From Escherichia coli (lineage in GTDB: Bacteria; Pseudomonadota; Gammaproteobacteria; Enterobacterales; Enterobacteriaceae): DNA of 64,000 nt. Position 1 is the first letter of the stretch, and each line of letters opens with the position of its first letter. Location of the stretch: NCBI RefSeq assembly GCF_003334315.1, contig NZ_QOWR01000025.1, one strand, 5' to 3'. Made by a program: the position numbers and the translations under genes. Below the pieces are notes generated by a model. That model searched no databases, was not told the origin of the DNA, and saw only the letters and a list, made by a program, of their open reading frames with translations. Of this stretch, positions 39,987-44,212 are shown one piece after another.

Positions 39987-41504
39987 TTATTGTTCTACGG
40001 CCATCAGACGTCGGTATTCATCCCACGCATAGAGGTCGGTCATACCGCTGATATAATCCTGCAGCAGGCGGCAACGGTAATAATATTCCCATAGCGGAAA
40101 CTCAGGAGAATCTGACGGTAATTTACTGACAGCCTCGACATAGGCCAGCCGATGGCGCGTCGAGAGTTTGTGGAATAAGCGCGATTCAATAGGGAAACGT
40201 TTCACCCGTTCTTTTTCTACCAGTTCAGTAAAGTCTGATAACGACAGGCTTAATAAAGGACGATAAATCTCTAATAATCCGCTAATGACCCGATAGCCCT
40301 GCAATTCAAGCTGCTCGACATCTGGATGGCTAAACACATGTTTTACAGCGACATTTTTATATAGCTTAAGAAGATCGCTGCATTCGCTGGCATCTTCCAA
40401 TAATGCATGATTAAACGTTCCGGCGAAAATCGCAGGCAGATTATCAATAAATCGTTGTGCCGCGTAGGGTACCAGTTTATTTAGGGTGTTTACCCGTAAA
40501 TACATAAAAAACTGATCTTCCGTACTGCGGCTTAAACTATTTGAGCGTGATTTTTCCCAGGCATTTTCAACCACCAGCGAAAAGAGCGAACCTTTCTCAT
40601 GCTGGCCCCACGCTTCGTGCAAATGATGATAAAGCTGCTCAACGGTAAATATTCTTTTCTCTACCGCATCTTCAAGGTCTGCCACACAATAGGAGATGTC
40701 GTCGGCAGCTTCCATAATCCACGTTAATGGAAAACGACTGTAAAGCGCCAAATTAAGTTCTTTACGCAACCGGGCAATATAGGCTTCTTCAGAAAGATAA
40801 TAACCCGGCTTTTTCATTAAATAGTGATGTGTCTCAGGCGTTTCGCCACGCCACCACGCCGGACGGGTATATTTTAAAATACCGCCAACCTGTGCCCAGG
40901 TGAGATTCATCCGCATCAATGTATGCACCAGGCGAATGCCTTGTGCATTCCCCTCAAAATGACATAAGTCCTGACGAATCTTGCGCCGCAGCTCGTTAAG
41001 CGGTTCTTCCCCGTCCCGTAAACGTAGTGCCGCCACGCTGCAGCGATCGTCAGTCAGAGGCTGGCTTTCGGCATCTTCCGGGTGCAAACGTTGGCGAAAC
41101 CAGTCATTTATCGCCGCTTCGCCAAAATGACCAAACGGCGGATTGCCGATATCGTGCATCAGGCATGACATCTCAACAATGCTTTCAAAGGGACCGGTCA
41201 GTTCATCCAGGCCGTATGCTTCCAGTAATTTAAGCTCTTTCAGACGGCTTAAAATTTCTTTGGCGATGTAGCGCCCCACCTGCTGGACTTCCATCGAGTG
41301 GGTAAGACGCGTGCGCACGGCGGCATTGCGCTCCAGTGGAAAAACCTGGGTCTTTTGTTGCAGACGACGAATTGCCGGAGAGTTGATGATACGCCCGCGA
41401 TCGCTCTCGAAGATCCGCAGGATCTCATGTTCGGTTTTAACGCCCTGCGGTGAACGGTAACGACGATGCCAGTTTATTTTTTTTCGGAAATCAATCTGTG
41501 CCAT
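39987..41504 (-). CDS. dgt: dGTP triphosphohydrolase
   Basis: 505 aa ORF beginning [23 protein letters not shown]-domain. Confidence 0.96.
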
Positions 41505-41587
41505 GTCCTCTCCCGCGTGAGAAATACGCTTCCCCGTAAGCGCATGGTAAACTATGCCTTCAAATCGGGCTTATCGCGAGTAAATCT

Positions 41588-42286
41588 ATGAAAATCGGCA
41601 TCATTGGTGCAATGGAAGAAGAAGTTACGCTGCTGCGTGACAAAATCGAAAACCGTCAAACTATCAGTCTCGGCGGTTGCGAAATCTATACCGGCCAACT
41701 GAATGGAACCGAGGTTGCGCTTCTGAAATCGGGCATCGGTAAAGTCGCTGCGGCGCTGGGTGCCACTTTGCTGTTGGAACACTGCAAGCCAGATGTGATT
41801 ATTAACACCGGTTCTGCCGGTGGCCTGGCACCAACGTTGAAAGTGGGCGATATCGTTGTCTCGGACGAAGCACGTTATCACGACGCGGATGTCACGGCAT
41901 TTGGTTATGAATACGGTCAGTTACCAGGCTGTCCGGCAGGCTTTAAAGCTGACGATAAACTGATCGCTGCCGCTGAGGCCTGCATTGCCGAACTGAATCT
42001 TAACGCTGTACGTGGCCTGATTGTTAGCGGCGACGCTTTCATCAACGGTTCTGTTGGTCTGGCGAAAATCCGCCACAACTTCCCACAGGCCATTGCTGTA
42101 GAGATGGAAGCGACGGCAATCGCCCATGTCTGCCACAATTTCAACGTCCCGTTTGTTGTCGTACGCGCCATCTCCGACGTGGCCGATCAACAGTCTCATC
42201 TTAGCTTCGATGAGTTCCTGGCTGTTGCCGCTAAACAGTCCAGCCTGATGGTTGAGTCACTGGTGCAGAAACTTGCACATGGCTAA
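41588..42286 (+). CDS. mtnN: 5'-methylthioadenosine/S-adenosylhomocysteine nucleosidase
   Basis: 232 aa ORF beginning [25 protein letters not shown]. Confidence 0.96.
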
Positions 42287-43079: not shown

Positions 43080-43116
43080 CGCCTGACCTTTTCAGGTGCT
43101 CAGTGGGGATTGAACA

Positions 43117-43740
43117 ATGCTCGTCTATTGGCTGGATATAGTCGGCACAGCGGTATTTGCCATCTCCGGCGTTTTGTTAGCCGGAAAATTGCGTATGGAC
43201 CCTTTTGGTGTTCTGGTACTGGGCGTGGTAACCGCAGTAGGCGGCGGGACAATTCGCGACATGGCGCTGGATCACGGCCCGGTATTTTGGGTGAAAGATC
43301 CCACCGATCTGGTCGTTGCAATGGTCACCAGCATGCTGACCATCGTGCTGGTGCGCCAGCCAAGACGCTTACCAAAATGGATGTTGCCGGTGCTGGACGC
43401 CGTTGGTCTGGCGGTGTTTGTCGGCATTGGCGTGAATAAAGCCTTTAATGCGGAAGCCGGTCCGTTAATCGCGGTTTGTATGGGCGTCATTACTGGCGTT
43501 GGCGGCGGGATCATTCGTGATGTTCTGGCCCGCGAAATCCCCATGATTTTACGTACAGAAATCTACGCAACTGCCTGTATTATCGGCGGTATTGTCCACG
43601 CTACGGCTTATTACACATTTTCCGTACCACTGGAAACAGCCAGTATGATGGGCATGGTCGTGACGCTATTGATTCGGCTGGCGGCTATTCGTTGGCATCT
43701 TAAGCTACCGACGTTTGCGCTGGATGAGAATGGGCGTTGA
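43117..43740 (+). CDS. yadS: UPF0126 inner-membrane protein YadS
   Basis: 207 aa multi-TM ORF with two internal repeats each carrying a Gly-rich motif (GGGTIRD / GGGIIRD). Confidence 0.88.
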   Translation: MLVYWLDIVGTAVFAISGVLLAGKLRMDPFGVLVLGVVTAVGGGTIRDMALDHGPVFWVKDPTDLVVAMVTSMLTIVLVRQPRRLPKWMLPVLDAVGLAVFVGIGVNKAFNAEAGPLIAVCMGVITGVGGGIIRDVLAREIPMILRTEIYATACIIGGIVHATAYYTFSVPLETASMMGMVVTLLIRLAAIRWHLKLPTFALDENGR

Positions 43741-43750
43741 AGAGAGAAGA

Positions 43751-43775
43751 TGTGCCGGATAGTTTATCCGGCACA
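43751..43775. other. Perfect hairpin between convergent yadS and erpA
   Basis: tgtgccggat-agttt-atccggcaca, 10-bp stem. Confidence 0.55.
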
Positions 43776-43786
43776 TGAACAACAGA

Positions 43787-44131
43787 TTAGATACTAAAGG
43801 AAGAACCGCAACCGCAGGTGCTTTTCGCGTTCGGGTTGGTCACGATGAAACGAGAACCTTCCAGACCTTCGGTATAATCAACGGAACCGCCGACCAGATA
43901 TTGCAGGCTCATCGGATCAACCACCAGGCCAACGCCCTGTTTTTCGATGGTCATATCGCCTTCGTTCACCTGATCATCAAAGGTGAAACCATACTGGAAG
44001 CCGCTGCAACCGCCACCGGTGATATACACGCGTAATTTCAGATTCGGGTTATCTTCGTCAGCGATCAGGCTTTTAACTTTGTTGGCTGCTGCGTCGGTAA
44101 ACTCCAGCGGCAGTGCTACGTCATCACTCAT
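43787..44131 (-). CDS. erpA: Iron-sulfur cluster insertion protein ErpA
   Basis: ORF-track 43787..44176; start set at [11 protein letters not shown] to give 114 aa; C-terminal CGCGSSF motif. Confidence 0.93.
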
Positions 44132-44212
44132 ATTTTGCTCCAAACGACATCGGCAATTGGGCAAATTATAACCCAATAATAATCGCCATTATCTAATACC
44201 CTGGTATTTCGT

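Follow-up and report, generated by a model that had tools for sequence, protein, structure and literature searches.

What does YadS do, a small membrane protein that carries two similar glycine-rich segments? We addressed this question for the gene at positions 43117..43740 (plus strand) of a 64,000-nucleotide stretch of Escherichia coli DNA, hereafter the window (contig NZ_QOWR01000025.1, RefSeq assembly GCF_003334315.1). An initial annotation, made from the letters of the window alone, had described the product as an internally duplicated and probably inverted membrane protein of the UPF0126 family, of unknown function, and as a candidate small channel or transporter. Our analysis points to YadS as a bona fide prokaryotic trimeric intracellular cation channel (TRIC; UPF0126/PF03458), a homotrimer with one pore for monovalent cations (K+) in each subunit, and we place the probability of this reading at about 0.75. 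The reading is built on gene identity, the internal duplication, seven helices, a topology bias, a fold match and the conservation of pore and gate residues, all of which are observed in YadS itself.

The identity of the gene is clear. The open reading frame at 43117..43740 starts with ATG and comprises 207 codons plus a stop codon, its boundaries are identical to those of the RefSeq yadS coding sequence in E. coli K-12 MG1655, and a 1051-nt stretch spanning it is 100% identical to that genome. RefSeq names the product 'TRIC cation channel family protein', and the structural literature refers to it as EcTRIC. The NCBIfam equivalog NF007874 (PRK10578), with a curated cut-off of 326 bits, matches YadS with 438.5 bits across profile positions 1-207 of 207.

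Internal duplication and inverted fold

YadS contains two tandem copies of PF03458 (a Pfam model of 78 positions) within its 207 aa, the arrangement and length (~200-210 aa) of TRIC/UPF0126 proteins. Repeat 1 (residues 4-78; 43126..43350, plus strand; E 1.5e-24) forms an N-terminal triple-helix bundle of transmembrane helices TM1-TM2-TM3, modeled at residues 2-24, 29-51 and 63-79. Repeat 2 (residues 92-163; 43390..43605, plus strand; E 1.4e-21) forms a C-terminal triple-helix bundle of TM4-TM5-TM6, modeled at residues 89-111, 116-137 and 151-166 and inverted relative to repeat 1. A seventh model helix, TM7 (residues 172-192; 43630..43692, plus strand), lies outside both Pfam repeat matches as an addition beyond the duplication and carries the invariant residue R187. 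Each repeat bears one glycine-rich motif: AVGGGTIRDMALD at residues 40-52 (43234..43272, plus strand) marks the TM2 kink, includes invariant G43, G44 and R47, and aligns with GGG48-50 of the homolog SaTRIC, and GVGGGIIRDVLAR at residues 127-139 (43495..43533, plus strand) marks the TM5 kink, includes invariant G130, R134 and D135, and aligns with SaTRIC GGG134-136 and R139-D140.

Direct comparison of residues 1-87 with residues 88-207 by BLASTP aligned 21 identical residues of 43 with an E value of 0.076 for the single comparison, which is marginal on its own. Because this value is not decisive, we added shuffle, Pfam and profile-profile tests. Smith-Waterman alignment of the two halves scores 89, and none of 5000 full composition-preserving shuffles of the second half reached this score (30.3 +/- 5.5, maximum 64, z 10.7). 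Shuffling in 12-residue blocks, which preserves the helix/loop hydrophobicity pattern, gave the same outcome (32.5 +/- 6.4, 0 of 5000 at 89, z 8.8). For profile comparison we collected a homolog pool of 7806 cluster representatives (50% identity, E up to 0.001) and cut into halves an alignment, A1, of 104 sequences consisting of YadS and 103 full-length homologs with 33-56% identity. The two half-profiles align in hhalign with 98.4% probability and E 4.9e-15 over 79 columns that span all three helices of each half, and a hidden Markov model built from one half alone matches the other half with E values of 5.8e-13 and 1.9e-10. The two halves of YadS are a true duplication, far beyond chance.

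Three of the cluster representatives have three PF03458-like repeats in place of two plus TM7: P0132 (304 aa), P0136 (305 aa) and P0144 (293 aa), the last with units at residues 2-83, 89-170 and 174-252. Such proteins could be a genuine form of the TRIC fold with three repeats, or they could be artifacts of assembly or gene calling.

A Kyte-Doolittle profile with a 15-residue window resolves seven hydrophobic segments in YadS, and an AlphaFold2 model computed on alignment A1 (mean predicted local distance difference test score, pLDDT, 96.5; predicted template modeling score, pTM, 0.91) places the helices listed above in the 3+3+1 arrangement of TRIC proteins, with short re-entrant helical turns following TM2 and TM5. 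With helix boundaries taken from the model, lysine and arginine residues divide between the two membrane faces 13 to 3: K24, R26, R80, R83, R84, K87, R134, R139, R146, R187, R192, K196 and R207 lie on the face formed by loops 1-2, 3-4 and 5-6 and the C-terminal tail, and R47, K60 and K108 lie on the other. By the positive-inside rule this bias places the YadS N-terminus outside and the C-terminus inside, in agreement with a green fluorescent protein (GFP)-tag orientation of YadS cited in PMC5477506. Since each repeat has three helices, an odd number, the second repeat enters the membrane the opposite way from the first. The modeled YadS repeats are inverted and antiparallel with an N-out/C-in topology, as in TRIC channels.

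We used the model to search the Protein Data Bank with Foldseek and found that the top nine matches are all prokaryotic TRIC structures. The match to 5wuf has template modeling (TM)-scores of 0.88/0.93, a root-mean-square deviation (rmsd) of 1.8 Å and 51% identity, 5wuc has TM-scores of 0.89/0.95 and an rmsd of 1.4 Å, and 5h36, 5wud, 5wue, 5wtr and 5h35 are also matched. Across the prokaryotic TRICs, TM-scores range over 0.85-0.89 when normalized to the query and 0.88-0.95 when normalized to the target, with rmsd values of 1.4-2.2 Å. Eukaryotic TRIC-A and TRIC-B rank after the prokaryotic structures with TM-scores of about 0.6, and the best match outside the TRIC family has an E value of 0.046. 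Sequence search against the chains of the Protein Data Bank recovers the same prokaryotic proteins, 5wuf CpTRIC (2.8e-54), 5h36 RsTRIC (9e-40), 5wuc SaTRIC (2.5e-31) and SsTRIC as 5h35 (3.4e-29) and 5wtr (2.1e-28); a structure of YadS itself is not deposited among the sequences searched.

The structural claims of the initial annotation hold up against these data. Two homologous glycine-rich halves are present with their motifs where it had placed them, both Pfam copies agree with its assignment to UPF0126, and the hydropathy profile and model bear out the flanking hydrophobic helices. The internal duplication is supported by the Pfam, shuffle and hhalign results, and the inverted topology by the odd helix number per repeat, the 13:3 charge bias and the fit of the model to inverted-repeat crystal structures (PMC5143425, PMC5477506). 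It had named self-alignment of the halves as the check on which the duplication should stand or fall, together with topology prediction and structural comparison to channel folds; the self-alignment is significant (no shuffle in 5000 reaches 89), the topology prediction returns seven helices with N-out/C-in orientation, and the AlphaFold model matches TRIC channels.

Pore and gate residues in the TRIC family

To relate YadS to characterized channels, we mapped its residues onto SaTRIC through HMMER alignments and counted conservation across the 104 sequences of alignment A1. Residues F14 in TM1 and F101 in TM4 correspond to the SaTRIC pore caps F20 and F106, the glycines G42-44 and G129-131 correspond to the helix-kink clusters GGG48-50 and GGG134-136, the set D94-R134-D135-Y150 corresponds to the gate network D99-R139-D140-Y155, and M143 in the gate region corresponds to L148. 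Eight positions, G43, G44, R47, D94, G130, R134, D135 and R187, show no variation in the alignment, and conservation is at least 98% at G42 and G131; the glycine clusters of TM2 and TM5 are both retained. The pore phenylalanines and the Asp/Arg-Asp/Tyr gate are likewise conserved in the family, with F14, F101, D94, R134, D135 and Y150 found in 90, 96, 104, 104, 104 and 103 sequences, respectively. In the N-terminal repeat YadS retains D7-R47-D48, as do most bacterial members, where SaTRIC has N13-S53-N54, and both YadS bundles therefore carry the lock motif.

Much of this architecture has been described before in the TRIC family. Su et al. 2017 (PMC5477506) note that UPF0126 is recognized as the prokaryotic branch of the family, and earlier bioinformatic work, as cited in PMC5477506 and PMC5143425, had deduced a duplicated three-helix segment followed by a C-terminal helix. 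YadS, as EcTRIC, was the seed sequence of the structural-genomics work that solved prokaryotic TRICs (PMC5477506). Kasuya et al. 2016 showed a separate pore in every subunit and a loss of channel activity in RsTRIC mutated at the Gly kinks (PMC5143425). In planar bilayers SaTRIC has a conductance of 159 pS with the preference K+ > Na+ > Rb+ > Mg2+ ~ Ca2+ (PMC5477506), and K+ conduction has been shown for SaTRIC, RsTRIC and SsTRIC (PMC5477506, PMC5143425, PMC5401562). Ou et al. 2017 found purified EcTRIC with the same neutral lipids, seen as lipid bands, as SsTRIC, and suggest membrane-potential or K+ homeostasis as a role (PMC5401562). The proposal of a channel candidate in the initial annotation thus agrees with the K+ conduction of homologs (PMC5477506, PMC5143425), and its label of unknown function is out of date, as UPF0126 is the prokaryotic TRIC branch, structures and electrophysiological recordings exist for several homologs, and YadS bears the name EcTRIC. 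The duplication and inverted channel fold are already described for the TRIC family in crystal structures from 2016-2017; the annotation is a correct rediscovery, accurate but ordinary, and carries little weight as a discovery.

The closest solved relative of YadS is CpTRIC from Colwellia psychrerythraea (5wuf; Su et al. 2017, PMC5477506), aligned over YadS residues 3-204 with E 2.8e-54 and itself reached by expanding from the YadS seed sequence. The two proteins have in common seven helices, the D-R-D-Y gate and a GGG(T/M)IRD motif in each of TM2 and TM5; they differ in that YadS R139 and D64 are replaced in CpTRIC by Asn and Tyr, respectively. The electrophysiologically characterized SaTRIC, SsTRIC and RsTRIC (5wuc-e, 5h35, 5wtr, 5h36) share the YadS fold and equivalent pore and gate residues at 31-40% identity, with SaTRIC differing from YadS in its N-repeat (N13-S53-N54 for D7-R47-D48) and at N144 (R139 in YadS). 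Eukaryotic TRIC-A and TRIC-B (5egi, 5eik, 6iyx and others) share the 3+3+1 inverted repeats and the kinks in TM2 and TM5 (Foldseek probability 1.00, TM-score about 0.6) but only 14-21% identity to YadS at an rmsd of about 5 Å; they differ further in residing in endoplasmic or sarcoplasmic reticulum membranes, in binding phosphatidylinositol 4,5-bisphosphate (PIP2) and in carrying a long C-terminal tail, and neither the Phe caps nor the D-R-D-Y network is conserved in them (PMC5477506, PMC5143425).

E. coli encodes a second TRIC paralog, YicG, with 42% identity to YadS over 151 aa (E 7e-38), a similar length of 205 aa and an identical RefSeq family name. Its locus is distinct from that of yadS, lying between ligB and dinD, with the MG1655 yicG gene at L007:18883-19500 (minus strand). 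In TM1, YicG has 'AEAMTG' where YadS has 'AVFAISG', which aligns an alanine to the pore-capping F14. Given this alanine at a position where 90 of the 104 sequences keep phenylalanine, YicG may have a wider pore or a different gating.

By analogy with these homologs, to which YadS is 31-51% identical in structural alignments, trimer formation, K+ conduction and a gating mechanism can be proposed. The YadS sequence consists of a three-helix unit, anciently duplicated in tandem, and a seventh helix. Its two units pack face to face in the inner membrane and, because each has an odd number of helices, run antiparallel, with the N-terminus in the periplasm and the C-terminus in the cytoplasm. The GGG clusters kink TM2 and TM5 halfway through the bilayer and, as in the solved structures, would expose backbone groups, which would line the center of an hourglass pore between the two inverted bundles of each subunit. 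F14 of TM1 and F101 of TM4 would cap this pore, and the D94-R134-D135-Y150 hydrogen-bond network would form a lock on its cytoplasmic side. Three such subunits would assemble into a lipid-stabilized trimer, which in prokaryotic TRICs has lipid-filled lateral fenestrations, and its three pores would act independently and conduct monovalent cations, with K+ favored. We conjecture that its purpose in E. coli could be K+ flux or the buffering of membrane potential.

Potassium channel or glycine transporter

Several observations weigh against YadS acting as a K+ channel. The TRIC papers cited here report no electrophysiology or transport assay of YadS itself (PMC5477506, PMC5143425, PMC5401562), transposon-fitness data tie UPF0126 homologs including Shewanella SO1319 to glycine utilization and not to K+ (10.1101/072470; PMC12173739), and Pfam now calls PF03458 'Glycine transporter' (Gly_transporter). 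YadS also deviates from solved channels at two positions. R139 (codon 43531-43533) occupies the position of SaTRIC N144, where the family has N in 36 sequences, G in 26, A in 13 and R in 12. Cations are described as binding along the three-fold axis, SsTRIC N142 (equivalent to SaTRIC N144) binds Mg2+, and SaTRIC N144A opens more often (PMC5477506); with arginine in this place, cation-dependent gating in YadS may differ. At D64 (codon 43306-43308), 71 of 104 relatives have Tyr, the mirror of gate residue Y150, and R139, D64 and the lock motif of the N-repeat could make YadS gating somewhat unlike that of the solved homologs.

A possible but unlikely alternative is that YadS has the TRIC fold and serves in vivo as a transporter or facilitator of glycine or another small metabolite, its kinked glycine-rich pore passing a small zwitterion. 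UPF0126 genes were found to have a specific importance for the utilization of glycine in 5 bacteria, and a glycine transporter was proposed (Price et al. preprint, 10.1101/072470), a count that stands at 11 bacteria in the published version as summarized by PMC12173739. SO1319, among these glycine-utilization genes, is annotated yadS in Shewanella, the Pfam name Gly_transporter follows the same assignment, and PMC5401562 mentions an earlier proposal of metabolite efflux as awaiting test. Genomic context does not favor glycine. An Rfam search near yadS at E values up to 1 returned only a spurious long non-coding RNA match (41432-41551) and no riboswitch, and the neighbors of yadS are mtnN, btuF, erpA and clcA, with no gcv or other glycine-metabolism gene. 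Five loci of three divergent homologs likewise showed neither a glycine riboswitch nor another credible Rfam element nearby, and no conserved or glycine-metabolism neighborhood, the contexts all being different and including flagellin genes, DUF3083 and tyrosyl-tRNA synthetase. A literature search for TRIC together with glycine riboswitches yielded only a false lead, 'tricistronic' matching 'TRIC'. In the preprint YicG, the E. coli paralog, is without a significant phenotype, and no result is given for yadS (10.1101/072470), solved homologs conduct K+ with channel-like conductance (PMC5477506), and a glycine fitness phenotype could follow indirectly from ion balance. In a Shewanella study of formate tolerance, yadS appears only as the neighbor of a mutated gene, and its knock-down left that tolerance unchanged.

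In its sharper form, which we regard as similarly doubtful, this alternative would hold that the enterobacterial TRIC fold is not primarily a K+ channel and that YadS, together with YicG, is a low-affinity facilitator for glycine, a small zwitterion or a metabolite, the K+ conductance of homologs in vitro being a side activity. If so, D64 and the unusual arginine at the cation site proposed for the three-fold axis (R139) would be signs of another gating ligand. A facilitator role is already in the literature for the TRIC family (Price et al.), and novelty would lie only in its demonstration for YadS, if true. Two bodies of literature are at odds on this family, one reading it as a K+ channel from homolog electrophysiology and the other as a glycine transporter from the fitness of homolog mutants, and E. 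coli, with two paralogs and easy genetics, is well suited to settling the question.

A relationship of YadS to other 3+3 inverted-repeat channels, the aquaporins and FocA-type formate/nitrite channels (FNT), which would make it a pore for neutral solutes or anions, is highly improbable. PMC5477506 points out a resemblance in topology, with six helices in inverted repeats, but describes the structural overlaps as highly divergent and the sequence signal as absent. Among the 50 Foldseek matches in the Protein Data Bank that were listed there is no aquaporin or FNT structure, only TRICs fall below E 0.04, and Pfam finds neither a MIP nor a Form_Nir_trans match in YadS, so that the half-helix 3+3 similarity of the MIP and FNT families is not seen by either comparison. 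Least credible of all is a chance likeness of glycine-rich hydrophobic helices with no real duplication, for which the BLASTP value of 0.076 and the biased composition common to membrane helices could be cited but which is refuted by one Pfam model fitting both halves at E < 1e-20, by shuffles that never reach the observed score even in blocks (z 8.8-10.7) and by the hhalign match across all three helices (E 4.9e-15), and which is further opposed by the superposition of the N- and C-repeats in a homolog crystal structure at 1.5 Å over 81 C-alpha atoms (Kasuya et al. 2016, PMC5143425).

The yadS locus

Of 5426 complete E. coli genomes, 5425 contain the yadS region, with at least 99% identity in 4252. 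One genome has no match, 3 matches are plasmid-borne and some genomes have two copies.

In the window, yadS follows dgt (minus strand), mtnN (plus) and btuF (plus), and erpA, yadW and clcA lie beyond it on the opposite strand. The mtnN and btuF genes overlap by 8 nt (42279-42286). Between btuF and yadS lies a 37-nt spacer (43080..43116, plus strand) in which no Rfam element was found, and because this short gap has no promoter-like or terminator-like site, mtnN, btuF and yadS are probably co-transcribed. A single transcript of this kind would join three genes unrelated in function. Downstream, a perfect 12-bp hairpin at 43750..43776 lies between the stop codons of yadS and erpA, two convergent genes; it has the sequence ATGTGCCGGATA-GTT-TATCCGGCACAT, a folding free energy of -19.5 kcal/mol and a z score of -7.4. 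A pyrimidine-rich tail is found only on the erpA (minus) side. The hairpin is terminator-like on the minus strand and is probably a terminator common to yadS and erpA.

PADLOC defense models gave no match. RefSeq also annotates two small proteins on the minus strand, both shorter than the threshold used for listing open reading frames: YadW (21 aa), at about 44124-44189 of the window and overlapping the start of erpA, and YadX (15 aa), upstream of clcA.
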